This document shows, in pieces, positions 1-63,500 of a stretch of 64,000 nt of DNA (the first letter of the stretch is position 1; each line of letters starts with the position of its first letter). The stretch is taken from contig JAXLWN010000008.1 in the NCBI GenBank assembly GCA_046328475.1, forward strand, positions 46,532 to 110,531. The letters are read 5' to 3'. A model generated the notes under the pieces. The model saw only the letters and a list, made by a program, of their open reading frames with translations. It was not told where the DNA came from and did no database searches. The position numbers and the translations under genes were made by a program. This stretch comes from Chloroflexia bacterium (GTDB lineage Bacteria > Chloroflexota > Chloroflexia > Thermomicrobiales > CADCWN01).

Positions 1-1
1 G

Positions 2-748
2 TCGACCGGGCTGCTGAAGGTCGTGAGCCGCCTGCGCGGCCGGGGAAAGGCGGCGAGCGCCGCGCCGACGCACGAGGATGGCGTCTCCCGCCGCCAGCGG
101 CAATTGCGCAACCCGGCCATCCGCTTCGCCTGGTCGTGGCTGGTGGCGCTCGATCAGGTCGGCACCTACCTCTGGCGGGTCCACCTCCCCGCCCGCCTTG
201 GGCGCGTCGTCGTCGCCGACCGCTACGCCTACGACACGGCGGCCGAGATGGACGCGACGCTGCCGCGCGACGACCGCTGGAGCAGGCTGGCGATCCGGGC
301 GATGCTGCGGCTCGTCCCGCGCCCGCAGGCGGCCTTTGTCCTCGCCGTGCCGCAGGCGCTCACGGAGCAGCGGCGGCGCGACGAGGTCTGGGGAGCCGAG
401 CCGGAGATCGAGCGCGAGCGCTATCGCGCACTGGCGGAGGCCCACGGGCTGCGCGTCGTGCCGAACGACGGCACCTTCGCCGACTGCAACGACACCATCT
501 TCCGCGTGATCATGGCGACCTACATGGTCGACTTCGGCACGCCGCTGAACGGCCTCTTCGGCTGCAACCCGGACCAGAAGAATCGCCCCGACACGGTCTG
601 GCGCTGCGCGGAGACACGGCGGGCGCTGATCGAGCTGCAAGTTGCAGGTTTGCAAGTTTCAAGTTTCTCCATTAGCGATGTCCTGGAACTCGATAACCTG
701 GAACCTGCCAACCTGCAACCTGCAACCATCGTTGAGGTAGCCCGATGA
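2..748 (+). CDS. 5'-truncated ORF, thymidylate-kinase-like (P-loop nucleotide kinase) C-terminal part; tail is translated through a repeat hairpin
   Basis: Open from the window edge in the frame of ORF 23..748. '...VVVADRYAYDT...' resembles dTMP-kinase-like kinases. The stop TGA overlaps the ATG of the next gene (ATGA 745-748). The last ~35 codons are encoded by repeat tract 635-727. Confidence 0.4.
   Translation, partial: STGLLKVVSRLRGRGKAASAAPTHEDGVSRRQRQLRNPAIRFAWSWLVALDQVGTYLWRVHLPARLGRVVVADRYAYDTAAEMDATLPRDDRWSRLAIRAMLRLVPRPQAAFVLAVPQALTEQRRRDEVWGAEPEIERERYRALAEAHGLRVVPNDGTFADCNDTIFRVIMATYMVDFGTPLNGLFGCNPDQKNRPDTVWRCAETRRALIELQVAGLQVSSFSISDVLELDNLEPANLQPATIVEVAR
635..727. repeat. Inverted heptamer-repeat tract (GCAGGTT-like arm / AACCTGC-like arm)
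   Basis: Left arm 635-667 'ctgcaagttgcaggtttgcaagtttcaagtttc'. Right arm 695-727 'aacctggaacctgccaacctgcaacctgcaacc'. The arms are imperfectly complementary. Confidence 0.8.
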
Positions 749-1731
749 AGGTACTGATCGTCACCAACATGTACCCGACGAAGGAGCGGCCCTCGTTCGG
801 CACCTTCGTGAAGGATCAGGTCAACGCGCTGCGCGCGGCCGGGGTCGAGATCGACGTCTTCTTCTTCAACGGTCGCCGCAGCAAGATCGAATACCTGACG
901 GCACTGCCCCACCTCTGGTGGCACTTGCTGCGGCACCGCTACGACCTGATCCACGCGCACTACGTCCTGGCCGGGGTCATCGCTCGCGGGCAGATCGGCC
1001 ACAAGGTGGTCCTGACCCACCACGGCGGCGAGGCGCTGGGGCACCAGCCCTTCCAGGCCAAGCTCTGCCGCTGGCTGACGCCGCTCTGCGACGAGACGAT
1101 CCACGTCACCGAGCAGATCCGCCGGGTGATCGGCGACGACGATGGCTGGGTGATCCCCTGCGGCGTCGATATCGACCGCTTCACACCCCAGCCGCGCGAC
1201 GAGGCTCGCGAGCAACTCGGGCTGCCGCTCGACAAGCCGCTGGTCCTCTTCGCGGGCGAGCACTGGCGACCGGAGAAGCAGTTCTGGCTCGTCAAGGCGG
1301 CGATGGCGCGGGTGCAGGAGAGCCTGCCCGAGGCCGAGCTGGTCCTGCTGACCGGGAAGCCGCACGCGACCGTCCCGACCTACATGGCCGCCTGCGACGC
1401 GCTGATCCTCACCTCCAGCTTCGAGGGTTCGCCGATGGTGGTGAAGGAAGCGATGGCGATGAATCTGCCGATCGTCGCGGTGCAGGTTGGCGACGTGCCG
1501 GAGGTGATCGGGGAGACGCCCGGCTGCGCCATCGCCAGGCGCGACCCGGCCGATGTTGCGAACAAATTGGTCGCGGTGCTGCGCCGACCACGGCGCACCG
1601 ACGGGCGGATGCGGATCGAGCACCTGCGCCACGACCGGATCGCCCAGCGGATCATCGAGGTCTACCACAAGGCGCTGCAGCCGCGCCGCAAGGTGCGCCA
1701 GCGGGCGGTCGAGCAGGGAGAGGGGCGATGA
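745..1731 (+). CDS. Glycosyltransferase family 4 (group 1 GT)
   Basis: 328-aa ORF 'MKVLIVTNMYPTKERPSFGTFVKDQ...' with a C-terminal 'FEGSPMVVKEAMAMNLPIVA' E-x7-E type motif. Start and stop overlap the neighbouring genes. Confidence 0.9.
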   Translation: MKVLIVTNMYPTKERPSFGTFVKDQVNALRAAGVEIDVFFFNGRRSKIEYLTALPHLWWHLLRHRYDLIHAHYVLAGVIARGQIGHKVVLTHHGGEALGHQPFQAKLCRWLTPLCDETIHVTEQIRRVIGDDDGWVIPCGVDIDRFTPQPRDEAREQLGLPLDKPLVLFAGEHWRPEKQFWLVKAAMARVQESLPEAELVLLTGKPHATVPTYMAACDALILTSSFEGSPMVVKEAMAMNLPIVAVQVGDVPEVIGETPGCAIARRDPADVANKLVAVLRRPRRTDGRMRIEHLRHDRIAQRIIEVYHKALQPRRKVRQRAVEQGEGR

Positions 1732-2552
1732 CGACGCTGGCCCAGCAGGCGTTCCACGTTGTCTGCGCGAAGGACTCGCGGCAGGCACCCACGCGCTACG
1801 AGGCGGAGTTTCTGGCGCGCTTCCGCTCGATGGAGACCTTCATCGCGCGCTACGACGGTCGGCTCGACTTCACCGGGAAGCGGATCCTCGACGTCGGCTC
1901 GGGGCTGGGCAGCCCGGCGATCTTGATGGCGGGACGCGGCGCGGCGCATGTCGTGGGCGCGGATATCATCCCGCGCGATGTCGATTTCGCCCGGCGCAAG
2001 CTGGCGAGCGAGTACGTCCACCTGGCCGACAAGGTCGAGTTCCGGCTGATTCGCGACTTCGCGGACCTGGGCGACGAGAAGTTCGACCTGATCATCTCCA
2101 AGGATAGCTTCGAGCACTACGCCGACCCGGAGGGGTTTGTCCCGGCGATGCTCAAGCTCCTGGCCCCCGGCGGCGAGCTGGCGATCGGCTTCGGGCCGCT
2201 CTGGAAGTCGCCCTACGGCGGCCACATCAAGTACATGACGCGCCTCCCCTGGGCGCACCTCCTCTTCTCGGAGGCGGTCATCCTGCGCGAGCGCGAACGC
2301 TTCTTCCCGGACCAGCGCGTGAAGTCCTACGGCGAGATTGTCGGCGGCCTGAATCAGATGACCCTGGCGCGCTTCGAGTCGATCATCGCGGCAAACCACC
2401 TGGAGCAGGTCTACTTCCGCGCCAACGCCAGCCGCCACCCCGCCGCCCGCTTCGCCTCCCTCGCCTCCCGCCTCCCCTTCGCCCGGGAGTATCTGACGTT
2501 CAACGTGTATGGGCTGTGGCGAGCGAAGTCGGGCAGTCGGGCAGTCGGATAG
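1728..2552 (+). CDS. Class I SAM-dependent methyltransferase
   Basis: The ATG at 1728 overlaps the upstream stop (ATGA). Contains the motif-I SAM-binding sequence 'ILDVGSGLGSPAILMA'. This is the 3' part of the long ORF 918..2552; the upstream part of that ORF is shadow. The stop TAG lies inside an octamer repeat array. Confidence 0.85.
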   Translation: MTTLAQQAFHVVCAKDSRQAPTRYEAEFLARFRSMETFIARYDGRLDFTGKRILDVGSGLGSPAILMAGRGAAHVVGADIIPRDVDFARRKLASEYVHLADKVEFRLIRDFADLGDEKFDLIISKDSFEHYADPEGFVPAMLKLLAPGGELAIGFGPLWKSPYGGHIKYMTRLPWAHLLFSEAVILRERERFFPDQRVKSYGEIVGGLNQMTLARFESIIAANHLEQVYFRANASRHPAARFASLASRLPFAREYLTFNVYGLWRAKSGSRAVG

Positions 2553-2628
2553 TCGGGTAGTCGGATAGAGGAATCCCCTCGTTACTCGTCACTCACTCAG
2601 CACTCAGCACTCAGCACTCAGCACTCGG
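2525..2628. repeat. Octamer array (NNAGTCGG)x5 followed by heptamer arrays (GTTACTC-like, CACTCAG x4-5)
   Basis: AGTCGG recurs at 2527, 2535, 2543, 2551 and 2559 (period 8). CACTCAG recurs at 2594, 2601, 2608 and 2615, with a degenerate copy at 2622. Confidence 0.9.
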
Positions 2629-2635
2629 AGGTACG

Positions 2636-3847
2636 ATGGCCGCAAAGCGCAACGCAAATCCCGCAGTCTGCATCATCCGGCACAACTACTATCCCGACAG
2701 CCATGTGCGGCGGGATGCCGAGGCGCTGGAGCGGACGGGGCACGATGTGCATGTGATCGCGCTGCGCCGTCCGGGACAGGCGGCGCGAGAGGTTGTGCAG
2801 GGCGTGACGGTCCACCGCCTGCCGGTGGAGCATCACCGGGGCACGGTGCTGCGCTACGCCTGGGAGTACCTGTCATTCGCCATCCTGGCCTGCCTGACCG
2901 TGGCGCGGCTGCACCTGCGGCGGCGCTTCCGGGTGGTCGAGGTGGACAGCATGCCCGACGTGCTGGTCTTCAGCGCGATCATCCCGAAGCTGCTCGGCGC
3001 GAAGGTGATTCTCTACATCTTCGACAACATGCCCGAACTGCTGCAAGTGATCTGGAAGGTGAAGCCGAGCCACCCGCTGGTGCGCATCCTGGCCTGGATG
3101 GAGCGGCTGAGCGCCGGGTTCGCTGACCGGGTGATCGTCAGCCAGGAGACGGCGCGGCAGGTCGTGATCGCGCGCGGCGTGCCCGAGGCGAAGGTGTCGG
3201 TGGTGCTGAACAGCGCCGACGAGGCGATCTTCCACCAGCGCCCGCGCCTGGTCGAGTCGCGGGCCACCGGGGCATTTGAGATCGTCACGCACGGCGCGAT
3301 CCTGGAACGCTACGGCGTGCAAACACTGATCGACGCGGTGCCGCTGCTGGTCAAGCAGGGCCTGGACGTGTGTGTGCAAGTCTTCGGCGAGGGGGAATAC
3401 GGCAAGTCGCTGCAAGACCTGGCGCGGCGCAAGGGCGTGGCCGACCGGGTCATCTTCCGGGGCTTCGTGCCGCAGGACGAGTTGCTGGCGACGCTCGCGC
3501 GCGCCGATCTCGGCTACGTCGGGATGCTCTGCGACCTGATGCTCTCCAACAAGCTGGTCGAGTACGTCTCGCTCGGCATCCCCGCCGTCGTCCCGCGCTG
3601 GCCCACGTTCGAGCACTACTTCCCCGACGACACCGTGACCTACTACGACGCGGGCGATGCCAAATCCCTCGCAGCGGCCATCGTCGCGGTCGCCGAGAAC
3701 CCCGAAGCAGCCCGCATCCGCGCCGCCCGCGCGACGGCCATCTACCAGGGCTACCGCTGGTCGGTGCAGCAACAGGCCTACGTCGGGATCTTCGAGGAGT
3801 TGATGACTGGCCCCCGCATGGCGCAGTCGAGCCAGCCAGCGGATTGA
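2636..3847 (+). CDS. Glycosyltransferase family 4
   Basis: 403-aa ORF preceded by the RBS GGAGG. The pattern 'ICIIRHNYYPDSHVRRDAEAL...GHDVHVIAL' is typical of WbuB-like GT4 enzymes. Confidence 0.9.
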   Translation: MAAKRNANPAVCIIRHNYYPDSHVRRDAEALERTGHDVHVIALRRPGQAAREVVQGVTVHRLPVEHHRGTVLRYAWEYLSFAILACLTVARLHLRRRFRVVEVDSMPDVLVFSAIIPKLLGAKVILYIFDNMPELLQVIWKVKPSHPLVRILAWMERLSAGFADRVIVSQETARQVVIARGVPEAKVSVVLNSADEAIFHQRPRLVESRATGAFEIVTHGAILERYGVQTLIDAVPLLVKQGLDVCVQVFGEGEYGKSLQDLARRKGVADRVIFRGFVPQDELLATLARADLGYVGMLCDLMLSNKLVEYVSLGIPAVVPRWPTFEHYFPDDTVTYYDAGDAKSLAAAIVAVAENPEAARIRAARATAIYQGYRWSVQQQAYVGIFEELMTGPRMAQSSQPAD

Positions 3848-3850
3848 GAG

Positions 3851-4041
3851 ACCTCACCCCCCGGCCCCCTCTCCCGCGAGGAGAGGGGGTGACGTGTTCC
3901 CCAGGCAGTAGCATGAATGGGGGTGAGTGCCACCCTACGGCGTATCCAGCCCCTACCGTGGTTCGTGACCTTCCCCTCTCCTCGCGGGCGGGTACCCCCC
4001 GAAGGGAGGGTGCGGTGCCGCCCGCAGGCGGCGGGGTGAGG
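3851..4041. repeat. Composite of REP-like family A modules in inverted orientation
   Basis: 3851-3890 'cctcaccccccggccccctctcccgcgaggagaggggg'. 3973-4041 'cccctctcctcgcgggcgggtaccccccgaagggagggtgcggtgccgcccgcaggcggcggggtgagg'. Confidence 0.8.
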
Positions 4042-4047
4042 TCTCCC

Positions 4048-6497
4048 CTACGGCGCTTCCCGCGCCCCGAGGTCGGGCGCAGCGCCGCGATAGTCGATCC
4101 CCGCACGGTCGGCAATATTCGGAACAGGAGTGCCAGCATCGATTTGCGGCGAACCGGCAGCAAGCGTGAGATTACCATTCGTGGGATCGGCGAGGCCGGG
4201 TTCGGTGCGGAAGGCACCGCCCTGATCGCCGCGATTGCTGTTGGCCCCCTGGCCGCTCGCTGTGCGGTAGGCCCCGACCGAGCCGCGATTGCCGCCGTAG
4301 CTGATGCCGCGATCGGTCGCGGCGGTGGCGAAGAAGTCGAAATCCTCGTCCCAGTGGTCGGCGGTGCCGGGGGTGTTGGACGGCGCGGCGAAGCCGTAGC
4401 GGGTCATGCGGAAGATGTTGTTCCGCAGGTAGAACCGCTCGCTGTTCGGCCCGCCCCCGGCGTACTGATTGCCGCCATCGGCCCCGGCGTCGCTGGTCCA
4501 GAAAGTATTGTTGATCACGAAGATGCGCGCGGCGGGCGCGCTATTGCCCGAATACTTGAAGCCGACGACCCCCACGCCCTTGTTGCCGCGCCCGTCGGCC
4601 CCGACGCCCATCGCGCCGAGTTGCCAGATTTCGTTGCGGAAGAAGTAGACCGGGCCATAGGCGAGCGGGCCGGTCGAGAGCGCGGTCGAGACATATTCGA
4701 GCCGGTTGTTCCAGATGCGCCAGTTGATCCCCTGCTGCTCCGGTTCGAACGAGTCGTCGGCGATGTGGCGCAGGAGATTGTCGTGCATGTCGTTGTCTTG
4801 CTGCGCGTAGCGGTCGAAATCCTGGTTGTAGCCACCGACACCATTGAAGAAACCGTCGATCGTGTTGTAGCGCACGACGAGGCGGTGCGCCCCACCCCGC
4901 CCGCCGACCGCGCCGGTCTCGGCCTCCGCGCCGACGCGGCTCCAACTCGTCGCCTGGCCGTTGATGCGGAGGTCGCTCTTCACGAAGTTCCAGGGAATCG
5001 CGGGCCAGGCCGGGTCGATGGACCAGGTGCCGGTATCGACGAAGCGGTTCCGCTCCACCAGTTGGTCGGAGCTGTAGGTGGACGGCTTGCCGTCGCCGCC
5101 ACTATCGGCGCGGTGCGACAGGCTGGCGAGCAAGAAGAGGTTGTGATCGACAACGCCCCCCGAGGAATCCGGCTGGTACCAGAGATCGATCGAGCGGAGT
5201 TCGAAGCCGCTGATCCGCACCTGCTCGCCGTAGACATTCCAGCGATTCGCCTTCAGCCCATCCGGCTCGGCGTAGACGGCGGCGAAGAAGCTGTTCGGGT
5301 CGCGGTCGCCGGGGAGGCGGGCGTAGAGGTCGTTGCCGAACGCGGTGAAGCCGAAGTTGTAGGTCTCGTTGCGATAGAGGACTTCGGCCCAGCCCTCCGG
5401 CGTCTCCAGCGTGTAGCCGTTCGACTGGCCCTTCTTCAGCGCCCAGTAGGCGATGCGCTGCGGCACCGCCCCCCGGTCAGTCGCCACCGACAGGCGCGTG
5501 GCGTCGGCCACCGGGCTGTTCGCCCACTTCCAGACCGTGTAATCCTGGCCCGTCGCCGGACCTTTCAGCGTCACTTTCACCCAGGAGCCCTCACCCGGCG
5601 AGGAGAAGGTCTGCGGTTCGACCACCGAGCGCGTCCCGGCGTTGATCGGCTCGCGATTGTCGTCTACGGCGGGATGCTCGGCGATCAGGGTGAGCGGTGC
5701 CTCGCGCGGGACCGCCGGGGGCGCGTACGAGCCGGGGGCGACGCGCACCACCGCGCCCGCCGGGGCATCTTTCAGCGCCTTGTCGAGCGTGAGCCAGGGA
5801 TGGTCCGCGCTGCCATCCGCCTCGTCGTCGCCGGTAGGGCTGACGAAGTGGGTCGGCTTCAGCGCGGAGACGGCGGGCAGCTTGTCGGCGCGGGTCTGCG
5901 TCGTGCCGGTGATGACCGGCTCGCCGCGCACGCCGTCGGGGTCATCCAGCGTGATCCGCAGGTCGTACTTCTTCCCCGCATCGAGCAGCAAGATGGAACC
6001 GTAGAACGCGCGCCGCTTGTCGTCGTCGGTGGGGCCGGTGCGCCAGAGGGCGAGGCCGGCGCGCCACTCGGTCGCGCCGGACGGCCCTTGAACTCGACAT
6101 TGGCGGTGGCGTTGCCGTTGTCATCGCCGTTGAAGAAGAGTTCGATCCCGATGTTGGCGTAGGTCGCGGAGAGGTTCAGGTTCCCGGCGGCGACGGCGTT
6201 CGGCGTATTGAGCACGGTCGGCACGCGCGTCGCGGCGGGCGGCGTGGCGGTCGCGCGCGGCGAGGGCGTAGCAACGGAGGCCGGGGACGAGCCGACGGCG
6301 GCGGTGGGTGGTGCCGACGACGGTGGTGGAGTCGTTACGGCAGCAGTCGGTTCGGGCGAGATGGCCGCGACAACCGGCGTGGGCGTCGGGCTCGCCTCGG
6401 TCAGCTTGCCACCGACGAAGGCGCCGCACCCGGCGGCGACCAGCATACAGACCACGATCAACCCGAGTGCGAGCAGGCGCGGGATCGGGCGCATCAT
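4048..6497 (-). pseudogene. Secreted lipoprotein with a right-handed parallel beta-helix (DUF1565/pectate-lyase-like) domain, interrupted by one frameshift as sequenced
   Basis: ATG at 6497 gives 'MMRPIPRLLALGLIVVCMLVAAGCG' (lipobox), then a Pro/Thr/Ala linker and '...NATANVEFKG'. The frame changes near 6084-6089. The protein continues as 'SGATEWRAGLALWRTGPTDDDKRRAFYGSILLLDAGKKYDLRITL...' in the frame of ORF 4048..5991. 'HFVSPTGDDEADGSADHPWLTLDKAL' is the classic beta-helix N-cap. Confidence 0.75.
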
Positions 6498-6560
6498 CGC
6501 CTCCGCGTCGCGGCGGTCGCCGGGATTAAGATCGCGGAGCGGAGCGGACAACGGTAAACC

Positions 6561-7265
6561 ATGCGAACCATGATACGCGGCGGGGGGTCGTTCTCCAAGC
6601 ACAATCCGGCGCAATTGGCTGGGCTATTGCTCCTACTTTTCGTCGGACTAACCGGGCTAGTCCTCGCGGGCGCGACCGATACCCTCGATATGGCCGTGTC
6701 GCGCGCGGTCATCGGCGCGGATCCCCACTGGCTCACCACGCTGCTCGGCCGGGCCACAACAGCGGCGGTCCCGCTGATCGCGCTGCTGGTGGTGCCGGTC
6801 GGCTGGTCGCTGCTGCGCCGCCGCGAGCGATTCGCGCTCCTGATCGTTGGCAGCAGCCTGGGTAGCTCCGCGCTCAACCTCGCGCTCAAGCTCGCGCTGC
6901 GCCACAACCCGCCGGATGGCGGCGGCATCGGGCGACCGATCGACTGGCGCAGCTCACCCCTCGCCGTCGCGCAGCAAATCAGCGACAGCTACAGCTACCC
7001 CAGCGGCCACGTCGCCTCGGCAATCGTGGCGCTGGGACTCTGGCTCCTCTGGCTCTGGCCGGTCCTGCCGCGCGCAGCCCGAATCGCCCTGCTCGTCGTC
7101 GCGGCGGGATACGTAGCCTTGCTGGCCTACAGCCGGATCTACCTCGGCCATCACGTCCTGACCGATATCCTGGGTGGCCTGCTGATCAGCGGGGCATGGC
7201 TGGCGGGAACACTCTGGCTTAACCAGAGAATCGAGAGGACGGATTCTTCGCGGTGCTCAGAATGA
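6561..7265 (+). CDS. PAP2-family membrane phosphatase
   Basis: Several TM segments plus the PAP2 motifs 'SYPSGH' and 'SRIYLGHHVLTD'. Confidence 0.85.
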   Translation: MRTMIRGGGSFSKHNPAQLAGLLLLLFVGLTGLVLAGATDTLDMAVSRAVIGADPHWLTTLLGRATTAAVPLIALLVVPVGWSLLRRRERFALLIVGSSLGSSALNLALKLALRHNPPDGGGIGRPIDWRSSPLAVAQQISDSYSYPSGHVASAIVALGLWLLWLWPVLPRAARIALLVVAAGYVALLAYSRIYLGHHVLTDILGGLLISGAWLAGTLWLNQRIERTDSSRCSE

Positions 7266-7295
7266 CAGGAGAAAGCTCTACCTCTCCCTGCCATG

Positions 7296-7394
7296 CTGAG
7301 CGCAGCGAAGCATCCGTCCCCACTCTCATCTCTCTTCTCTCCTCTCTCTTCTCTCCTCGTCCCTCTCACGACTCACGACTCACGACTCACGACT
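7296..7394. repeat. CT-rich tract plus (CACGACT)x4
   Basis: 'ctctcttctctcctctctcttctctcc' followed by CACGACT at 7367, 7374, 7381 and 7388. Confidence 0.9.
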
Positions 7395-8644
7395 CGTCCC
7401 GGCCGCAAGAACCAGGTCCCGGTCGCGAGGAGCGCGCCACCGAGCCCGGCGGCGGCAGTGAAGAAGCCGAGGCCATTGAAGCCACTGCTGATGATCAGCG
7501 GGCCGCCAACCGTGGTGGCGACGAGCCAGCCGACACTGGAGCCGGTGATGTTGAGCCCCATCACCGCGCCGCGCGCCTCGCCCGAGACCTCGCTGAGCGA
7601 GGTGAGCAGCAAGAGTCGCCCGACCGCGTTCACCAGGGTGTAGACAAAGCCGAGCGCGACCGAGAAGACGACCGAGTGGTGCCACATCAGCGCCGGGAAC
7701 GCCAGCAGGCCGGTGATCGTGGAGGTGACAGCGAAGACGAGCGGCCGGGCGCGGAAGCGATCCGCAAGGCGACCACCGACCAGATTGCCGCCCAAGTTGC
7801 CGGCCGCGACGACCGACAGCCCGATCGCCAGCGCCCCGAGCGTCACGCCGTAGGTCGTTTGCAGGTACGTCGGGAAGAAGACGACCACCCCGGAATAGCA
7901 GAGGCGCTCGGTGATGCCGCAGAGCAGGAGCGCGATCGTCGGGTAGTTGAGCAGCCGCACCATCTCCCGGAAGGGCAGCGGCTTGGTCCGCTGCTGCGAA
8001 CCGCCGCGCGGCACCACCAGCCAGACCAACGCCGCCGCGACGATCATCGCGATGCCGTAGGAGAGGAACGCGCCGCGCCAGCCGAGCAACCCACCCGCGC
8101 TGGTGATCAGCGGCACCCCGACGACGAGCGAGAGCGATTGCCCGGTGGAGAGCCAGCCGAGTGCCCGCCCGCGTTCGGTCGCGGGGAAGCGGTCGGCGAC
8201 GGTGGCGAAGACCGCCCCCATGTACGACCCGCCGCCCAGCCCACCGATCACGCGCCAGGCCGCGACGCCGAAGTAGGTGGAGGACCAGGCCACGCCGAGC
8301 GGCGAGAGGACCAGGATACAGAGCCCGCCGAGCAGGATCGGCTTGCGCCCCAACCGGTCGGACGCCGTCCCGGCGACGAGGGAGGCGAAGCCCCAGGTGA
8401 TGCTCGACAGTGCGACGAGATTGGCGACCGCCGCGAGGTCGGTGCCGAGGTCGCGCGACATGTCGATCAGGAACGGGGAGACGGCGACGCCATTGCCCGT
8501 GACCAGAAACGTGGCGAAGCAGAGCGCCAGCAGCATCAGCAACCGCTCGCGCGAGGCGCGCGTGGTGCCGAGATCGGCGTTGGGCAGCGCACTGGAGACT
8601 GGGGCAGACGTCGGCTCGTCGAGGACAGCTGGCGCTCGCGACAT
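7373..8644 (-). CDS. MFS transporter
   Basis: Polytopic membrane protein with MFS motif A 'GTASDRLGRKPILLGG'. Start taken at 'MSRAPAV' (alternative 8671). The C-terminal 'VVSRES*' and the stop codon are encoded by the heptamer array. Confidence 0.85.
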   Translation of the reverse strand: MSRAPAVLDEPTSAPVSSALPNADLGTTRASRERLLMLLALCFATFLVTGNGVAVSPFLIDMSRDLGTDLAAVANLVALSSITWGFASLVAGTASDRLGRKPILLGGLCILVLSPLGVAWSSTYFGVAAWRVIGGLGGGSYMGAVFATVADRFPATERGRALGWLSTGQSLSLVVGVPLITSAGGLLGWRGAFLSYGIAMIVAAALVWLVVPRGGSQQRTKPLPFREMVRLLNYPTIALLLCGITERLCYSGVVVFFPTYLQTTYGVTLGALAIGLSVVAAGNLGGNLVGGRLADRFRARPLVFAVTSTITGLLAFPALMWHHSVVFSVALGFVYTLVNAVGRLLLLTSLSEVSGEARGAVMGLNITGSSVGWLVATTVGGPLIISSGFNGLGFFTAAAGLGGALLATGTWFLRPGRVVSRES

Positions 8645-8749
8645 CGGCAATCCTGTTTCGAAACAGTGCAATGGTCCAGATTACGCGTCGCGTGCAGGGT
8701 AGCACGTTCCGCCATCACGCACCAACTGACATTGAGGGCGTTGCGGGCA

Positions 8750-8820
8750 GTTTGAAGGTTCGAAGGTTCGAAAGTTCAAGCCCAGAACCTTCGAACCCTC
8801 GAACCTTGAACTTTGAACCC
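8750..8820. repeat. GGTTCGAA-type inverted tandem tract
   Basis: 'gtttgaaggttcgaaggttcgaaagttcaag' (8750-8780) faces 'gaaccttcgaaccctcgaaccttgaactttgaaccc' (8785-8820). Confidence 0.85.
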
Positions 8821-8896
8821 ACAAAGTGGTACGCCACTTGCCACCACAGCCATAGGTCATTGCGTCGCCGATGACGCTCGTGGCAAGGAGGTTATC

Positions 8897-9541
8897 ATGG
8901 CGAAAGGACAGCGCGATTTGCGCGAATACCTGACCGCATACGACGCTCGCGAGCACCTGCCGGAACTGGCCGGTTGGATGGACGACGATCTGCTGAAACA
9001 GCTCACGCTCTGGAAAGGCAGCCGCTTTGCGAGCGAGGATACCTACTTCGACCTCGACAATCCGCAACGTGGGGCGTTCGTGGCGACGGGCGACGAGCGT
9101 CCGATTGTGGACCACACCTACGTCGCCCACAGCCAGGCGGGGGAGCGGGCCTGGATCGTGCTGACCACCTGGCAGCAGCCGATCGACCAGTCGCAGGGCG
9201 AGGCCCTGGCGCGGCAGATCGACGAGGTTGCCCCCGGCCCGACCCAGAGTGCGGCGGGGGATGCGCGCCCGCGCCCTGAGCCAACGGCAGAGGAAGACGG
9301 CAGGCGTCACCACGGTCTCGTCGACCGGTTGGTCCCGGAGCGCGGCTTCGGCTTCATCACGGACGACGACGGGAGCGAGTACTTCTTCCATCGCACCGCG
9401 CTGCAGGCCACGGTGTTGGACGAACTCGCCCCCGGCACGGCGGTGACCTTCGCCGTCGGCTCGGACCCGGGCGATCAGCCCGACGAGCATCTGCGCGCGG
9501 TCAGCGTGCGGCTGGCCGATGCCGAGGTACCGGCGGTGTAG
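8897..9541 (+). CDS. Protein with an unknown N-terminal domain fused to a C-terminal cold-shock (CSD/OB) domain
   Basis: RBS AAGGAGG lies 7 nt before the ATG at 8897. The C-terminus 'RGFGFITDDDGSEYFFHRTAL' is an RNP1/RNP2-like CSD signature. I do not recognise the N-terminal ~130 aa. Confidence 0.7.
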   Translation: MAKGQRDLREYLTAYDAREHLPELAGWMDDDLLKQLTLWKGSRFASEDTYFDLDNPQRGAFVATGDERPIVDHTYVAHSQAGERAWIVLTTWQQPIDQSQGEALARQIDEVAPGPTQSAAGDARPRPEPTAEEDGRRHHGLVDRLVPERGFGFITDDDGSEYFFHRTALQATVLDELAPGTAVTFAVGSDPGDQPDEHLRAVSVRLADAEVPAV

Positions 9542-9550
9542 GTAGACGCG

Positions 9551-9573
9551 AGTCGTGAGTCGTGAGTCGTGAG
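9551..9573 (+). repeat. (AGTCGTG)x3
   Basis: Copies at 9551, 9558 and 9565. The array begins 9 nt after the stop codon of the CSD fusion gene. Confidence 0.9.
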
Positions 9574-9779
9574 TAGAGACGTTACGCAGGGACTCGGCAT
9601 AGACACTGCATGGCGACACTTAAGGAACGGCGGCGCGGTGGCTCTCCACCGCGCCGCCGCTGCGTGCGGGGCGGGGGAGACAATCGTACGGGACGGAAGC
9701 ACCGAACGTGTTAACCGAATGGGGCAGGGCAAGTTGGTCATTGTGACGGTACTTCGCGCACCCGTACACTCCTAAAGTA

Positions 9780-12119
<2,340 letters not shown>

Positions 12120-12164
12120 CCTCTGCCCCTCTCCCTTCGCCCTTCTCCCCTCGTCCCCAACGCA

Positions 12165-12779: not shown

Positions 12780-12784
12780 CGCGC

Positions 12785-12900
12785 CTCAGTCGTCAGTCGT
12801 CGTCGTCAGTGATGAGTGATGGGTGATGAGTGATGAGTACGTCCGAGCCGGCCGGACGTTACTCATCACTCATCACCCGATCCTCGTTACTCGTTACTCG
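12785..12900. repeat. Composite of heptamer arrays arranged as a long palindrome
   Basis: (CAGTCGT)-like 12785-12810 and (GATGAGT)x4 12811-12838. A stem forms between 12823-12845 and 12853-12876 (23 bp, one bulge) around GCCGGC. (GTTACTC) follows at 12885-12900. Confidence 0.9.
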
Positions 12901-14035: not shown

Positions 14036-14087
14036 CTCCCTCTCGGCTCCTCGCGGTGCAACAGTGGGGGATTATAGAGGGTACGGC

Positions 14088-14206
14088 CCTCACCCCGCCG
14101 CCTGCGGGCGGCACCTCCTCGGAGAATGCGGAGTGCGGAGTGCGGAATAAGAGTGACCCCTCCCCGCCACTTCGCGGCGACCCTCCCCCTGAAGGGAGAG
14201 GGTGAG
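14088..14206. repeat. REP-like family A copy with embedded (TGCGGAG)x3 and a second hairpin module
   Basis: 14088-14115 'cctcaccccgccgcctgcgggcggcacc'. TGCGGAG at 14127, 14134 and 14141. 14181-14206 'ccctccccctgaagggagagggtgag'. Confidence 0.8.
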
Positions 14207-15421: not shown

Positions 15422-15497
15422 GCCTCTCCATTGCCCAATACTCGCGCGAAACTAGGGCCGATCATGTCCGATTTCGGCGCTAGACTGGAATTGTAGC

Positions 15498-49144: not shown

Positions 49145-49153
49145 ACGGGTGGT

Positions 49154-49258: not shown

Positions 49259-49268
49259 GGAGGACACA

Positions 49269-50277: not shown

Positions 50278-51912
<1,635 letters not shown>

Positions 51913-52036: not shown

Positions 52037-52864
52037 CTACAAGATCTTCGAGCGCAGATAGGCGCTGCCGTAGTCGATCGCCAGCGTCATCACGAGCGTA
52101 ACGAGCAGGACCATGCCGGTCTTGCGGAAGGCAAACTGGTTGATGTACTCCAGGGCAACGAAACCGAGACCACCCGCGCCGACCGCGCCGAGGATGGTGG
52201 CCGAGTGGACGTTGACCTCCCAGGAATACAGTGTGTGCGCCACGAAATAGGGGAAGAATTGGGGCATAATCGCGAAGAGTAACACTTGCCAGGGGTTCGC
52301 CCCGGTCGCCGTTACCGCCTCAATCTGCCCCCAATCGATCCCCTCGATCGCTTCCGAATAGAGCTTCGCGAGGAGACCACCGGAGAAGACGGTGATCGCC
52401 AGCACGCCCGGAAATTGCCCGATGCCCACCGCCGCAACGAAGAGGAGGCCCCAGAAGAGCGTCGGCATGGCACGCACGGTGCTCATCAGGAAACGCACGA
52501 CGAAGTAGAGCACGCGCGTAATCGGGTTGCGTGCCATCAGGTTCCGCGCGCCGAGGAAGCTGATCGGCAGGGCCAGCGCCGCGCCGAGGATGGTGCCGAG
52601 GATCGACATCTCGATCGTCTCGCGCGCGTAGCGCACCAGCGTGGAGAAGACCGACCAGTCGGGATCGAAGATCCCTTCGAGCAGCCTGCCCATGTAGGGC
52701 AGTCCCGACACCAGGTTGACCAGGTCGAATTCGGTGTCCTGCCCGATCCGGCGCAGGATGATCCCGCCCGCTATCAGCCCGAGCACCCAGGCGAGGGGGC
52801 GCAGCCGGGCGCGCACCGGCGGGCGCAGCTCAGTCCTTGCGGATGTAGATGAGATCGTAGACAT
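52037..52864 (-). CDS. phnE: Phosphonate-type ABC transporter permease
   Basis: 275-aa polytopic permease downstream of phnC. It overlaps the phnC end by 35 nt. Confidence 0.85.
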   Translation of the reverse strand: MSTISSTSARTELRPPVRARLRPLAWVLGLIAGGIILRRIGQDTEFDLVNLVSGLPYMGRLLEGIFDPDWSVFSTLVRYARETIEMSILGTILGAALALPISFLGARNLMARNPITRVLYFVVRFLMSTVRAMPTLFWGLLFVAAVGIGQFPGVLAITVFSGGLLAKLYSEAIEGIDWGQIEAVTATGANPWQVLLFAIMPQFFPYFVAHTLYSWEVNVHSATILGAVGAGGLGFVALEYINQFAFRKTGMVLLVTLVMTLAIDYGSAYLRSKIL

Positions 52865-53588
52865 CGCTCGTCACCTCGTCTGGCAGGCCGTCGAAGACGA
52901 TCCGGCCGCTGCGGAACCCGACGATCCGGTCGGCATACTCGCGGGCGTAATCGAGCTGGTGCAGATTGACGATGGTGGTGATGCCATCCTCGCGGTTGAT
53001 CTCGCGCAGGTAGCCCAACACCACTTTCGAGGTCTCCGGGTCGAGGCTCGCCACCGGCTCGTCGGCGAGCATGATCTCCGGATTCTGCGCCAGCGCGCGG
53101 GCGATCGCCACGCGCTGCTGCTGACCACCGCTGAGCGCGTCGGCTCGCGTGTAGGCACGATCGGCCAGCCCGACCCGCTCCAGGGCGCGAAAGGCGACCG
53201 CGCGGTCCTCGGCGCTGAAGAGCGGCAGCGCCGCGCGCCAGCCGGTGTGGTAGCCCAGCCGCCCGGTCAGGACATTCTGCTCGACCGTCAAGCGGCGCAC
53301 CAGATTGAACTGCTGGAAGATGATCCCGATCGTGCGACGGACTCGCCGCAACTGTCGACCGCGCGCCGCCGTCACGTCGATCCCGTTAACGTGAATCGTC
53401 CCGCTCGTCGGATCGACCAGACGGTTGAGCGAGCGAAGAAAGGTGGACTTGCCCGCCCCCGACAGGCCGATCACGGCTACAAACTGGCCGCGCGGCACAT
53501 CGAGTGTCACGTCTTGCATTGCGAGCGGACCCTTGGGGTACTGCTTCGTGAGCTTGCGGACGCTGATCGTCGCTGCTTCGGTCGCCAT
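52830..53588 (-). CDS. phnC: Phosphonate-type ABC transporter ATP-binding protein
   Basis: 'MATEAATISVRKL...GLSGAGKST...LSGGQQQRVAIARAL'. It is in the same open frame as phnD upstream. Confidence 0.9.
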   Translation of the reverse strand: MATEAATISVRKLTKQYPKGPLAMQDVTLDVPRGQFVAVIGLSGAGKSTFLRSLNRLVDPTSGTIHVNGIDVTAARGRQLRRVRRTIGIIFQQFNLVRRLTVEQNVLTGRLGYHTGWRAALPLFSAEDRAVAFRALERVGLADRAYTRADALSGGQQQRVAIARALAQNPEIMLADEPVASLDPETSKVVLGYLREINREDGITTIVNLHQLDYAREYADRIVGFRSGRIVFDGLPDEVTSDVYDLIYIRKD

Positions 53589-54647
53589 GTAACCTCGCGG
53601 GATGAAGAAGGGCGGAGTCGGGGCTGCGCGGCGGCATTCGCGATACGAATGCCGCCGCGCAGCCCCAGCTCCATCGATTGCGGATGGGGTTGCGGTAGGC
53701 AGCTTCAAGAGGCTGGGATCGACCGCCTTGACAACGTCGCGCAGCACATCGTAGTCACCATCGACGGCCTCCTGAAGCGAGTCGATGGTGAAGAGATCCT
53801 TGATGAACTGTTTCCCTTCCGGGTCGCTGCTCAACTTCAGAAGCGCGGCCTTCAGCTTGGCGACCTGGCCCTTGTTGAGATCCGCGCGAACCACCTGCGG
53901 ATCGGCGGGGATAAGTTCCGAGGTCCAGATGATCCGCGTCTTGTCCAGGATGTCGGGGAACTTGTCGATCACTTCCTTATTCTTGCGCGCATCGTCGTAG
54001 AATGCGCCCGCATCGACCTGCCCCTGGTAGACAGCGATTGCCAGCGAGCTGGCGCTGCTGATGTTCTGGGCTTTCAAGTCGTTGTCGACATTGAGCCCGG
54101 CCTTGATCATCGCCGCCTTGGGATAGAGCGTGCTGGAGGCCGACAGCGGATCCCCAAAAGCGTAGCGCTTCCCTTTCAGATCCTTAATCTCCTTGATGTC
54201 ACTGTCGGACTTGACGACCATGAAGGCCTTGTAGCCCTTCGTGCCGTTGCGAATCGACGCCGTGATCGGGTAGCAGTTATTCTGGTCGCGCGCCTGCACA
54301 TAGCTCAACGGACTCATCCAGGCGAGGTCGGTCTTTTTCGAAGTGATCGACTGCGTGACTGCCGCGTAGCTCGTCGCAGTGGTAGATTTGACTGTGTAAC
54401 CGGTCTCTTTACTCAGGAAATCGGCGATCTTCTGGCCGCTCAGTTGGATCTCGCTGGTATCCCGCGAGGGGACGAAGGCCATGTTGACTTCTTTCTTCTC
54501 GGCTTCTTCTTTCGGCGTTGCGGTCGCTCCACCCATGCCGCAGGCCGCTAGCAGCAGCGCGGCTGTCGCGCCCGCGCTCAGTCCGAGAAAGCGTCGCCGC
54601 GTCAACTCGGCCAGCAGAAGGTTCGCCTTGAATCGTGAATCATCCAT
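53589..54647 (-). CDS. phnD: Phosphonate-type ABC transporter substrate-binding lipoprotein (Tat signal); no in-frame stop before phnC
   Basis: RBS GGAGGAGG, then ATG at 54647. Contains 'TRRRFLGLSAGATAALLLAACG' (twin-Arg plus lipobox) and a PhnD-like body. The true 3' end is undefined because the ORF runs on into phnC. Confidence 0.75.
53620..53666 (-). terminator. Intercistronic stem-loop between phnD and phnC
   Basis: A perfect 21-bp stem (53620-53640 with 53646-53666) and a 5-nt loop. It lies inside the continuous phnD-phnC reading frame. Confidence 0.5.
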
Positions 54648-54983
54648 CGTGGGTTGCCTCCTCCTCGTCACTTCCTGCCCGTCTCCCTCATCCCCGGCAT
54701 TCTGACCTGGCTCCCGCGTGGTCGCTCCTTTCGCACAATGTCGCAGCCGCCACGCTATTCGCTGGGCTGCGGGCTACGCATGCAGTACTCAGGTGCGTGA
54801 AGACAGTCGAATGCCACGCGGGAATGATACGTGTCGATCAGAGGAGGGTGCAATGATAGGATAGCGCTGGCGGCATCCGAGCGGGCGGTGATCACCGTCC
54901 AGAACGATGAGACCGCTGAGGTTGCTGTTGCACGTTGGCGGGCCGTGCACTGAATCTCGACGCACCAGTGAAGGAGGCCAGCG

Positions 54984-56204
54984 GTGCCATTCGTGATCTA
55001 TGTCACCCCATTCTTCTCCGAAAACGCCGCGCGCAACATTGCAGCGGCGATCGAGATGCCCGAGGTGCGGTTGGGGGTAATCAGCCAGGCTCCGCTGGAG
55101 GAGCTGGCGGCGGAGGTGCGTCCGAGGCTGGCGGGGCACTGGCGGGTAGATGATGCGCTGGATACCGAGCAGTTACTCGGGGCGGCGCAGGGTCTCGCAC
55201 GCCAGCACGGGACAATTCACCGGCTGATCAGCGCCCAGGAGCAACTGCAAGTGCAAATCGCGGAGGTGCGCGAGCGGCTGGGTATCGCCGGTATGCTGCC
55301 GGAGGCGGCGCGCAACTTTCGCGATAAGGCCCGGATGAAGGATGTGTTGCGCGCGGCGGGGGTGCCCTGCGCCCGGCATCAACTGGCCGCGAGCGAGGCT
55401 GAGGCGTGGCGCTTCGCCGAGTCTGTCGGCTATCCCCTGGTGCTGAAACCGCCGGCGGGGGCTGGTTCGCAGGCGACCTACCAGATCGAGGGACCGGTGG
55501 CGCTGGCCTCGGCCTTGGCCTCGGCAAACCCGGGGCCGGGGCGCGAGGCGCTGCTGGAAGAGTTCATCACCGGCGAGGAGCATTCATTCGACACAATCTC
55601 GCTCAGGGGCCAACACATCTGGCACTCGCTGACCCACTATTTGCCCGCGCCGCTCGACGCGATGCGGAATCCCTGGATCCAGTGGTCGGTGCTGTTGCCG
55701 CGCGAGATCGATGAGCCACAATACGACGACATCCGCCAGATCGCCTTCCGGGCGCTCGATGCGCTGGGGATGGAGACCGGGCTGAGCCACATGGAGTGGT
55801 TCCGGCGGAAGGATGGCAGCATCGCAATCTCCGAGGTCGCGGCCCGCCCGCCGGGGGCGCAGATCACCACGCTGATGTCGCGCGCCAACGATTTCGACGC
55901 GATCGCCGCCTGGACGCGGCTGATGATCTTCGACACATTCGAGCCGCCGCAGCGACGCTACGCGGTGGGTGCGGCCTTCCTGCGCGGCCAGGGACGGGGC
56001 GTTGTGCGCGCGGTCCACGGCCTGGAGCAGGTGCAGCGCGAGATTGGCCATCTCGTCACCGACGCGAAGCTGCCGACGCCGGGACAAGCGCCATCCCCCA
56101 GCTATGAGGGCGAGGGATACATCATCGTGCGGCACCCCGAAACAGCGGTTGTGCGCGACGCTTTGGCGCAAATCGTGGGGACAGTCCGAGTTGAGTTGGG
56201 ATAG
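54984..56204 (+). CDS. ATP-grasp domain enzyme (carboxylate-amine ligase type)
   Basis: GTG start after AAGGAGG. 'FRDKARMKDVLRAAGVPCA...GYPLVLKPPAGAGSQ...EEFITGEEHSFD' is an ATP-grasp pattern. Confidence 0.8.
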   Translation: MPFVIYVTPFFSENAARNIAAAIEMPEVRLGVISQAPLEELAAEVRPRLAGHWRVDDALDTEQLLGAAQGLARQHGTIHRLISAQEQLQVQIAEVRERLGIAGMLPEAARNFRDKARMKDVLRAAGVPCARHQLAASEAEAWRFAESVGYPLVLKPPAGAGSQATYQIEGPVALASALASANPGPGREALLEEFITGEEHSFDTISLRGQHIWHSLTHYLPAPLDAMRNPWIQWSVLLPREIDEPQYDDIRQIAFRALDALGMETGLSHMEWFRRKDGSIAISEVAARPPGAQITTLMSRANDFDAIAAWTRLMIFDTFEPPQRRYAVGAAFLRGQGRGVVRAVHGLEQVQREIGHLVTDAKLPTPGQAPSPSYEGEGYIIVRHPETAVVRDALAQIVGTVRVELG

Positions 56205-63382: not shown

Positions 63383-63388
63383 TGAGGG

Positions 63389-63500
63389 ACGGTTTGAAGG
63401 TTTGAAGGTTCGAAGGTTGGGGTGGTAAACCTGCAAACCTGCGAACTTTCGAACCGTACACCCATCATCGGCGACTGACGACCGACGACTGACGACTCGG
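63389..63500. repeat. GGTTTGAA/GGTTCGAA-type inverted tract followed by (GACTGAC)x4
   Basis: Arm 63389-63418 pairs with arm 63427-63456 (23 of 29 positions complementary). GACTGAC-like units at 63473, 63480, 63487 and 63494. Confidence 0.85.

Follow-up and report, generated by a model that had tools for sequence, protein, structure and literature searches.

STRR-like heptamer arrays and mirrored-arm modules in the spacers of a Chloroflexota genome

A 64,000-nt stretch of a Chloroflexota genome (GCA_046328475.1, contig JAXLWN010000008.1, positions 46,532-110,531, forward strand; 68% G+C), hereafter the window, carries many short head-to-tail arrays, mostly of 7-nt units, that are concentrated in non-coding DNA, are often paired as mirrored arms, and follow a fixed strand polarity. 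These tracts most likely represent, at this locus, short arrays that occur throughout the genome, each holding 3-6 copies of a 7-nt, or less often 8-9 nt, unit. We interpret them, with somewhat better than even confidence, as heptameric elements of a Chloroflexota lineage akin to the short tandemly repeated repetitive (STRR) sequences of cyanobacteria: spacer-filling modules with mirrored arms that are homogenised by slippage and conversion, are kept out of open reading frames (ORFs), and may have acquired secondary roles in untranslated regions (UTRs).

Genes in the window were mapped from third-position GC content (GC3), Pfam matches, and the gene calls of a near-identical metagenome-assembled genome (MAG; GCA_046328415.1, contigs JAXLWR010000026 and 31), an independent assembly that is 99.4-99.7% identical to the window. 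Judged by sequence relatedness, the host belongs to the Chloroflexota and not to the cyanobacteria, in agreement with a first-pass annotation of this DNA, to which the window did not look cyanobacterial: the closest orthologues of its GT9 glycosyltransferase (72-73% identity) occur in MAGs labelled Thermomicrobiales or Chloroflexia, and remoter relatives in Roseiflexaceae, Kouleothrix and cyanobacteria. The accession of the near-identical MAG stands next to that of a Kouleothrix MAG.

Occurrence, anatomy and polarity of the arrays

All tracts listed in the first-pass annotation were recovered by Tandem Repeats Finder (TRF) and direct reading, with the units given there and at nearly the same positions, and further tracts were found at 7319-7367 (CT-rich heptamers), 12120-12158 (CCTCTCC, five copies) and 14212-14239 (T-rich units). 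That such tracts are not due to chance is borne out by an order-3 Markov model of the window, under which 0.01 perfect heptamer arrays of at least three copies are expected and 9 are observed. Period-7 stretches of at least 17 nt number 15 against 0.35 expected; two-copy heptamer seeds are hardly enriched (12 vs 8.3 expected), and 7 is the sole strongly over-represented period above 3. Moreover, 25 of the 32 arrays of period 7-9 are non-coding, in a window whose non-coding share is only 12.9% (binomial p=7e-17). These arrays cover 9% of the non-coding DNA and sit in 14 of the 30 spacers of at least 60 nt, their copy number is narrow (3.4-4.7 units), and their density is 3.1 per 10 kb in the window and 4.7 per 10 kb in a related MAG locus (L002). 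They share the properties of long simple sequence repeats (SSRs), namely a 5-11 nt unit iterated head-to-tail beyond chance, a preference for non-coding DNA, and variation in length or sequence at conserved positions, which here takes the form of unit differences and two replacements without simple copy-number change. Ordinary low-complexity coding sequence accounts for the tract at 2433-2478 and for a few 8-9-mers.

The arrays had been described as sitting exactly at gene boundaries, which holds in part. Six of them overlap a stop codon or adjoin one: arrays enclose the stops at 2550-2552 (methyltransferase) and 7373-7375 (MFS), the GT9 stop at 12887-12889 is also overlapped, and an array begins in or beside the stop at 34091 (MFS2), 40497 (aminotransferase) and 40796 (2-hydroxyacid dehydrogenase). 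Within spacers, however, placement is indistinguishable from uniform (mean percentile 0.47 for distance to the nearest gene end; Wilcoxon p=0.59), so that hugging of gene ends beyond random within-spacer placement was rejected, and arrays lie near gene boundaries mostly because the spacers are short. Similarly, the description of all tracts as intergenic or confined to the last few codons of a gene fits the 25 non-coding arrays but not the module at 636-727, which occupies part of the last 37 codons of a 637-aa NTP_transf_5 ORF; the ORF running through this module is called in the MAG as well, where the sequence is identical.

Contigs of short-read assemblies end in arrays (the MAG contig that starts at window position 42365, and the assemblies L135, L134 and L001), indicating that arrays do break assemblies. 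They are not assembly artefacts, since 22 of the 25 comparable arrays are identical in the independently assembled MAG.

Structurally, the arrays fall into two classes: inverted pairs, in which an array is followed by its own reverse complement, and lone direct arrays. The first-pass annotation was incomplete in this respect, as many arrays are the two arms of hairpin modules. In predicted folds, the paired arms can form a 25-35 bp hairpin or cruciform. Hairpins are predicted at 630-735 (dG -37.3 kcal/mol, z -5.0), 8742-8826 (dG -37.7 kcal/mol, z -5.7), 12784-12905 on the minus strand (dG -56.9 kcal/mol, z -6.0), 43530-43615 (dG -42.8 kcal/mol, z -7.2) and 63384-63460 (dG -34.6 kcal/mol, z -4.9), and two (GAAGTAC)n arrays with 250 nt between them close the convergent spacer 40490-40805 over its full length (dG -141, z -10.6). 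Lone arrays are unstructured, with the region 2520-2632 folding worse than 200 of 200 shuffles (z +2.4). In L002 the module occurs at consecutive junctions, including both sides of GT9, in the order stop, (X)n, 30-70 nt loop, (rcX)n, Shine-Dalgarno (SD) sequence and ATG, where rcX is the reverse complement of X; the two arms have equal copy number and the helices reach up to 31 perfect bp (z -10.3 and -9.4). Variant units are mirrored in the opposite arm with pairing kept (GGTGATG/CATCACC in the window module at 12786-12901, GGTCGTG/CACGACC in L002), and a third mirrored variant is offset by one unit.

Comparing the stability of the sense and antisense strands across 20 junction modules, we found an even split (10 vs 10) and no G-U bias. 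Arm complementarity is therefore a strand-symmetric property of the DNA, and RNA-level selection on the hairpins was rejected. Such symmetry fits inverted duplication, gene conversion between arms, or mobility as a single-stranded DNA hairpin better than selection on a single transcript. None of the array hairpins is followed by the T run of an intrinsic terminator (AACAAATCC, CCACAAAG and CGTACACC follow instead), and canonical hairpin-plus-T-run terminators are scarce in window positions 1-20000 (1 found vs 7.4 +/- 3.3 in shuffles), with none at an array. A scan of the 64-kb window against Rfam gave no match at the gathering threshold, and a tRNA scan gave nothing relevant to the arrays.

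The arms are also polarised. All six inverted pairs run from a G-rich to a C-rich arm and none in reverse, an order that reads alike from either strand and in which the G-rich strand runs 5'-to-3' toward the centre of the spacer on both strands. Expressed relative to genes, post-stop arrays hold more G than C in the sense strand, and pre-start arrays hold at least as much C as G. This rule applied to 13/13 post-stop and 9/9 pre-start arrays in a hand count of the window and the MAG-only sequence, and G exceeded C in 19 of 24 post-stop heptamer arrays when automatic gene calls were used across all fetched loci (p=0.007). Position is likewise tied to vocabulary. Post-stop units are of the GAGTNNN/AGTC type, with GAGTCGT occurring at three window sites and also in the MAG, accompanied by AGTCGGGC, AGTAACG and AGTGCTG, and by AGTCGGC, AGTCCGT and AGTCGTG in L002. 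Pre-start units are the complements of these or NNACTGA variants (CACTCAG, CACGACT, CGACTGA twice, CTACTGA), and these arrays stop where the SD starts, 6-20 nt from the ATG. Stop codons supplied in all frames were considered as the cause of the polarity and found insufficient, as direct reading placed a stop triplet in only about half of the post-stop units.

Units are reused far more than expected. The 21 heptamer arrays collapse into 13 classes independent of rotation and strand, against 20.8 under the null (P<5e-5), and ACT/AGT is present in 15 of the 21 arrays, against 4.2 (P<5e-5). The impression of many different units gives way to a small vocabulary that is reused at unlinked loci: GAGTCGT/ACGACTC, GAGTAAC, AGTGATG, GAAGTAC, CGACTGA, CTACTGA and GGTTCGAA. 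Together with the fixed polarity, this reuse points to a lineage-specific generative process, in line with the genome-specific one proposed in the first-pass annotation. The (CACGACT/GAGTCGT)n array alone occurs at six unlinked sites in 3.4-4.6 copies; its copies have no flank homology beyond a few nt, and for the two MFS genes that end in it, an origin by gene duplication was rejected because their proteins are only 23% identical. Some distant copies do share their immediate context, with the composite order GTCCCTC-ACGACTC at 7355-7395 recurring inverted at 15498-15566, and the flanks TAG-array-GAGTrGrGACG common to 9543-9588 and 34048-34093 (reverse complement).

Two further dispersed families were found. 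Hairpins built on GGTTCGAA occur in 3-4 dispersed copies. Furthermore, two arrays are joined via GGGGACGG to a pair resembling repetitive extragenic palindromic (REP) elements, CTCACCCCGCCGCCTGCGGGCGGCACC + CCTCTCCC..GGGAGAGGG, and this REP-like composite has six copies in the window, at 4014-4043(-), 14086-14115, 15567-15627, 27522-27597(-), 33855-33915 and 33996-34050(-). Several of the copies begin right after stop codons, and an esterase ORF (26645-27595) ends within one. Similar CCCTCTCCCC..GGGGAGAGGG palindromes were seen in unrelated metagenomic sdhA loci.

Near-identical strains and more distant genomes

Close strains were located by exact-protein look-up. Between the window and the MAG, 25 arrays can be compared (arrays at 19.1-42.3 kb fall outside), and 22 of these are unchanged, the modules at 636-727, 43539-43609 and 63391-63497 among them. 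At 0.4-0.6% divergence, none of the 22 differs in copy number (+/-7 nt). Copy-number variation between strains, which the first-pass annotation had led us to expect, was thus not seen, and two arrays were replaced wholesale instead. In the sdhB leader, the window has (ACTGACT) x4.6 followed by GGAGGACACA-ATG, whereas the MAG has (CACGACT) x4 followed by ACCCGAAGGGGGAGGG-ATG with a different SD; the upstream half of this sdhA-sdhB spacer is identical in the two. In the leader of the pentapeptide gene, (CGACTGA)n in the window corresponds to an unrelated G-rich leader in the MAG, and the first three codons differ too. The array at 42362-42413, inside which the MAG contig starts, is the sole one with small differences (3 single-nucleotide polymorphisms [SNPs] and a 3-nt indel).

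At a larger distance, in Logan assemblies 89-95% identical to the window (L134-L136), (GATAGGC)n or GGAGAGT-type units replace the GAGTCGT/GAGTAAC/GAGGGAC series of the WYL/RidA spacer, on the same strand, with the same polarity and between the same flanks. Location and polarity therefore persist as the unit turns over. SNP-dense tracts that contain no array also separate the window from the MAG, in the WYL gene (14782-15110) and at 54984-55400, which indicates that ordinary recombination with divergent donors is active; this process may explain the two array replacements.

Other differences were also seen. MAG contig 31 holds about 6 kb that the window lacks at breakpoint 19095-19099, with genes for GT2, DUF2064, a molybdopterin oxidoreductase, an epimerase and an MptA/GT87-like protein. 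Two PAS-GGDEF-EAL paralogues lie there in tandem (repeats 73-89% identical), and the site of the break is in the 3' EAL-domain part of the first one; this suggests a deletion by recombination between paralogous EAL segments. The WYL/WCX regulator at 14458-15422(-), which lies within the SNP-dense tract 14782-15110, is intact in L134 (319 aa, with HTH) and apparently frameshifted in both the window and the MAG, which differ there by two indels; this suggests either a recombination import or a decaying gene. The divergent promoter between the phosphonate-binding/ABC gene and an ATP-grasp gene (window 54487-54981, L132 12124-12642) is entirely different in the two genomes, and in the MAG version 217 nt duplicate the PEPCK 3' end (window 51696-51912) at 93% identity. 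Finally, a single 613-aa ORF in the window (52830-54671(-)), in which a phosphonate-binding periplasmic domain is fused to an ABC ATPase domain, is represented in the MAG by three separate short genes and four single-base indels, a difference that probably reflects homopolymer or consensus errors in one assembly, or gene decay.

Among more distant relatives, no synteny with the window was found even where GT9 is 73% identical, L002 included, which made comparison of orthologous spacers around GT9 impossible; close strains were used instead. L002 shares the units AGTCGTG, CTCACGA and AAGTACG with the window, and nearly every one of its junctions has a different unit. Other Chloroflexia loci carry heptamers of their own, and cyanobacterial GT9-bearing loci have about one array per 10 kb or fewer.

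A metagenome search with SdhA returned no close strains (best match 70% identical). It did yield relatives from a second lineage (62-66% identity, ~58% GC) that show the same architecture, in which a stop is followed by (GAGTCGA/GAGTCAA/AAGGCTG)n, often a complementary arm, (NNACTGA)n and the ATG (L077, L079, L087, L089, L093, L094, L096, L106, L114, L115, L121 and L131). In these, the (NNACTGA)n arrays, TAACTGA included, end 1-8 nt before the sdhA ATG without an SD. The ACTGA core is near-invariant and the 2-nt linker varies within one array, a contrast that is partly circular because the search pattern enforces the core. At the orthologous sdhA-sdhB junction, arrays are absent in L052, L053, L055, L114 and L115.

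Individual tracts and neighbouring genes

The following tracts were delimited by TRF and direct reading of the sequence; strands are given where assigned. At 636-727(+), a hairpin module of TGCAAGTT-type units (x4, 636-666) and (AACCTGC) x4.6 (695-727) ends 17 nt before the next ATG (745). A G-rich (AGTCGGGC) x5 array at 2527-2568(+) holds the methyltransferase stop TAG, and a perfect, G-poor (CACTCAG) x4.7 array at 2594-2626(+) ends at the SD GGAGG, 9 nt from the ATG (2636) of a GT4 glycosyltransferase. In the convergent-gene spacer at 7319-7395(-), (GAGTCGT) x4.4 at 7365-7395, with the MFS stop inside it, precedes (AAGAGAG)-type purine arrays.

The next two tracts flank a gene with a cold-shock domain (CSD) at 8897-9541(+), which encodes 214 aa with a C-terminal CSD. 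Upstream, the divergent spacer between the MFS and CSD genes contains the hairpin module (GTTCGAAG) x3.5 / (GAACCTTC) x4.6 at 8750-8819, a member of the dispersed GGTTCGAA family; downstream, a perfect (GAGTCGT) x3.6 array at 9550-9574(+) lies 8 nt past the TAG stop. A second CSD gene, at 16628-16849(-), encodes a Csp of 73 aa, with exact matches on 21 contigs from several metagenomes.

Further along, (CCTCTCC) x5.3 at 12120-12158 fills a 45-nt spacer between the convergent stops of a GGDEF-HD gene (12119) and the pentapeptide gene (12165). At the other end of the latter, a complete junction module at 12786-12901(-) separates the GT9 stop (12887) from the pentapeptide-gene ATG (12779); read on the minus strand, it consists of an (AGTAACG)/(AGTGATG) arm, a GC-rich apical stem, a (CATCACT) arm, (CGACTGA) x3.7, GAGG and the ATG. 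The GT9-WYL spacer has (TGCGGAG) x2.9 at 14127-14146(+), beside the REP-like element 14086-14115, and T-rich 7/8-mers at 14212-14239(+).

A composite at 15498-15627(+) occupies the divergent WYL/RidA spacer. Its array part (15498-15566) comprises (GAGTCGT) x3.4, (GAGTAAC) x4.4 and (GAGGGAC) x2.4, and is followed by GGAC and the REP-like pair. The same composite recurs at 33996-34092(-) as the MFS2 stop (34091-34093), (GAGTCGT) x4.4 at 34062-34092, GAGTGGGGACGG and a REP-like pair. The divergent spacer between an M14 peptidase and an aminotransferase gene holds (CTCTGCGTC) x2.8, (TTCTCTC) x4 and (CGTCCTTGG) x3.2 at 39051-39209(+). Mirrored arms at 40497-40797 close the convergent spacer that follows (arrays 40497-40527 and 40762-40797): (GAAGTAC) x4.4 starts in the aminotransferase TAG stop and (TCGTCAT)/(TTCGTAC) ends in the 2-hydroxyacid dehydrogenase stop, such that the unit is GAAGTAC in the own sense of each flanking gene.

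Upstream of the first GFO/IDH/MocA gene, (CCCCCACG) x6.5 at 42362-42413(+) is unstructured as RNA; on its minus strand, (CGTGGGGG)n upstream of this oxidoreductase gene is a potential G-quadruplex former. Between two co-directional GFO genes lies the hairpin module (GGTTCGAA) x3.6 / (AACCTTCG) x4.4 at 43539-43609(+), which is separated by 12 nt from the preceding stop and by 20 nt from the following ATG. At the sdhA-sdhB operon junction, a perfect array of ACTGACT (equivalent to CTACTGA) x4.6 at 49228-49259(+) stops at GGAGG, and 9 nt separate it from the sdhB ATG (49269); an 11-G run at 49152-49163, right after the sdhA stop, and a single GAGTCGTGAG that follows it are identical in the MAG. 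Finally, the M28 peptidase/MBL-fold junction contains a hairpin, (GGTTTGAA) x3.5 / (AAACCTGC) x2.5, at 63391-63446(+), 8 nt past the stop, and (CGACTGA) x3.7 at 63472-63497(+), ending 16 nt before the MBL-fold ATG (63514).

Two resemblances to stable RNAs may be mentioned. The 8-mer GGTTCGAA of the modules at 8750-8819, 43539-43609 and 63391-63446 presumably resembles the tRNA T-arm consensus, which we take to be GGTTCGAA(TCC), and GAGTCGT/GAGTAAC presumably share a short resemblance with the 16S rRNA sequence AAGUCGUAAC.

Upstream of the window, the MAG offers an instance of a gene call affected by an array. In L139 (711-760), the called start of a sigma-70 gene lies 5' of (ACTCACG) x4.6, which is stop-free in sense, and a complementary (AGTCGTG) x4.4 array directly follows the stop of the preceding gene. 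From the sequence, the annotated sigma-70 N-terminus is probably an artefact of an array that is open in all frames.

Origin, possible roles and known repeat classes

If the arrays are STRR-like spacer modules, as we think somewhat more probable than the reverse, in-register slippage and gene conversion, the latter also acting between inverted arms, would give rise to them and keep their units uniform. New spacers would be seeded via ectopic recombination or REP-like mobilisation, two arrays being fused to a REP-like palindrome, and only arrays outside reading frames would last: 7 is not divisible by 3, so that a unit shifts the frame of an ORF, and this would keep the arrays confined to non-coding DNA. 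Since they are transcribed within UTRs and operon junctions, secondary effects are probable. With canonical hairpin-plus-T-run terminators almost missing from this genome, hairpins could stand in for them or act as barriers at 3' ends, and the G-poor, unstructured arm just 5' of the SD could be a landing platform for the ribosome or for a single-strand-binding protein.

Several observations weigh against this account. The constancy of copy number in 22 arrays is contrary to a high slippage rate and weakens slippage as the main short-term engine. The two replacements extend to non-repeat flanks and the SD, for which ordinary recombination with divergent donors could suffice, and the presence of a locus-specific unit everywhere is awkward for a single mobile element. 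Arrays are missing at the five sdhA-sdhB junctions named above and in 9.4 kb of the MAG, and are therefore dispensable. Finally, stop-codon content, as a cause of the polarity, covers only about half of the post-stop units, and every functional step is inferred.

Neutral slippage with a lineage preference for 7-nt units, a hypothesis already published (PMC4692102), could produce the arrays as mere by-products, their location and polarity being the residue of purifying selection on ORFs. We regard this as possible, if on balance rather unlikely. Random placement within spacers, the array-free orthologous junctions and 9.4 kb of the MAG, fast turnover of units, functionally unrelated flanking genes and hairpins without sense-strand bias all agree with it, but one would then expect +/-7 nt polymorphism among the 22 arrays and an excess of two-copy seeds, neither of which was seen; nor does independent local slippage predict that units recur at unlinked loci far above chance, that polarity is fixed, or that mirrored arms carry compensated variants. 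Another reading takes the modules for non-autonomous palindromes, similar to REP/REPIN elements or to miniature inverted-repeat transposable elements (MITEs), which a transposase encoded at some other site would move in single-strand hairpin form, with lone arrays as decayed halves. The modules are palindromic in architecture, members are dispersed (the GGTTCGAA family has 3-4 copies) and their complementarity is strand-symmetric, as expected of DNA hairpins; composite order and short flanks are common to distant copies, arrays are fused to a REP-like palindrome with six window copies, and an inherent arm order would account for the polarity without function. Mobility of this kind nonetheless appears doubtful to us, given that the (CACGACT)n copies have no common extended flanks or ends, that nearly each L002 junction has its own unit, that no target-site duplications are evident and no transposase, RAYT/IS200-like ones included, is encoded in the window, and that the strain differences are replacements and not clean insertions or deletions.

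The arrays may, alternatively, be cis-regulatory sites for a single-strand nucleic-acid-binding protein of the CSD or S1 type that contacts one unit per 7 nt and controls how translation starts or is coupled where cistrons meet. Arrays before starts run right up to the SD, 6-20 nt from the ATG; the ACTGA core with its 2-nt linker in the SD-less sdhA leaders matches the TAACTGA arrays, which are proposed targets of S1, Csp or Csr proteins (PMC4679880); deletion of heptamers in Nostoc changed promoter activity (bioRxiv 10.1101/2022.06.06.494920); copy number is narrow; and one of the two CSD genes in the window is flanked by arrays. We nevertheless hold this to be unlikely, as the several different units make a single sequence-specific protein improbable, the conservation of ACTGA is partly circular, and CSD genes are ubiquitous, so that their proximity may be due to chance. 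The punctuation function raised in the first-pass annotation is possible, with arm complementarity showing no sense-strand (RNA) signature; its broadest form, to which we give less credence still, would be a punctuation of cistron boundaries that is position-coded and conserved across phyla, written as GAGTNNN/AGTC after stops and NNNACTC/NNACTGA before starts, read by a CSD/S1-like single-strand-binding protein with a 7-nt period, and with junction hairpins governing translational coupling or mRNA processing. If true, it would finally assign a function to STRR-type repeats. More speculative yet, the polarity could stem from head-to-head healing of a broken spacer, with a G-rich strand synthesised reiteratively on each of its 3' ends. 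Phase-variable contingency loci that switch neighbouring genes through copy number are very improbable: repeats do lie in promoter, leader and stop-codon regions, and SSR phase variation is known elsewhere (PMC4692102), but copy number was the same in 22/22 arrays, the neighbours include housekeeping genes (sdhB, oxidoreductases), and the arrays are short and mostly outside ORFs. The probability of chance low complexity or assembly artefact is practically negligible; short-read contigs do break at arrays, as noted above, but the excess over expectation, the identity of arrays in an independent assembly and the recurrence of the same architecture in unrelated MAGs speak against it.

Heptamer repeats came to be known from cyanobacteria around 1990, some 35 years ago, and their origin and function are not established (PMC4692102, PMC4679880, bioRxiv 10.1101/2022.06.06.494920). 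To these, the present analysis adds testable regularities: the mirrored module spanning a junction, a polarity that holds in unrelated loci and genomes, and a reused vocabulary tied to position. It also supplies natural allele pairs in which one array is swapped for another before the essential gene sdhB. These regularities make origin and function experimentally approachable in Chloroflexota and overturn nothing established. On the practical side, arrays disrupt short-read assembly and make called ORFs longer or shorter, as in the NTP_transf_5 tail, the 5' end of the MAG sigma-factor gene, and the stops supplied by arrays.

Among known repeat classes, the STRR elements are closest in kind. 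Their units include CCCCAGT (STRR1), TTGGTCA (STRR2) and CAACAGT (STRR3), several of which have the CAGT/ACTG core that is frequent here, and like them the window arrays have 7-nt units, form short tandem arrays in non-coding DNA, and occur in many copies per genome. None of STRR1, STRR2 and STRR3 is present in tandem on either strand of the window, in keeping with the first-pass view of STRR-like elements with other units. The host, a Chloroflexota member at 68% GC, is not the heterocystous cyanobacterium of STRR sensu stricto, and mirrored arms, polarity and REP fusion were not found in the searchable STRR literature. REP elements and bacterial interspersed mosaic elements (BIMEs) are palindromes scattered between genes, at operon junctions and 3' gene ends, and can form hairpins in mRNA or single-stranded DNA. 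The GGTTCGAA hairpins and the array-REP composites are dispersed in the same manner, whereas most modules have locus-specific units and no common flanks; their arms are tandem heptamers without a conserved element sequence.

TAACTGA arrays lie near gene starts in Beggiatoaceae, cyanobacteria and Bacteroidetes, where they often replace the SD and binding of S1, Csp or Csr has been proposed (MacGregor 2015, PMC4679880). Both they and several window arrays are forward repeats of 2-6 copies that end a few nt before the starts of unrelated genes, here 49228-49259 before ATG 49269, 63472-63497 before ATG 63514 and 12786-12810(-) before ATG 12779. TAACTGA itself does not occur in the window, which has the variants CGACTGA and CTACTGA, and an SD (GGAGG/GAGG) follows each window array, while it is missing in the metagenomic sdhA relatives. 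Furthermore, only one indirect repeat was found in 170 sets in that study, whereas many window arrays are post-stop or in hairpins.

Over-representation of heptamers in bacterial intergenic DNA, with a proposed origin in polymerase slippage, has been described (PMC4692102), and Mrazek 2007, as cited there, found heptamers over-represented in many bacteria. The GGGAATC repeats of Xanthomonas and GGGGAYT repeats of Nostoc (Rehm 2015) include inverted pairs and vary in length and sequence between species (PMC4692102). They resemble the window arrays in being intergenic, in having about four units, in occasionally forming stem-loops from inverted pairs and in varying at conserved positions, but the window units are not G-quadruplex formers, save possibly the complement of (CCCCCACG)n at 42362-42413, and length variation there contrasts with replacement between near-identical strains here. 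In Nostoc, a reporter study showed that deletion of heptamer repeats altered promoter activity (bioRxiv 10.1101/2022.06.06.494920).

The first-pass annotation had named only the cyanobacterial STRR elements; the class is in fact documented in other phyla (PMC4692102, PMC4679880) and in Chloroflexus (PMC6749651). For heptanucleotide repeats in Chloroflexi, the searchable literature gave only this last satellite survey. The mirrored-arm junction module, the polarity, the position-specific vocabulary across non-syntenic genomes, the REP fusion and the replacement of one array by another were not found in that literature. In the survey, Chloroflexus aurantiacus tops the bacteria with (GATAGRA)n (PMC6749651). 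GATAGRA is not in tandem in the window, and the survey includes neither gene-boundary context nor polarity nor hairpin modules. These satellites nevertheless belong to the same phylum and are likewise scattered and derived from a heptamer, and (GATAGGC)n occupies the WYL/RidA site of a strain that is ~95% identical to the window.

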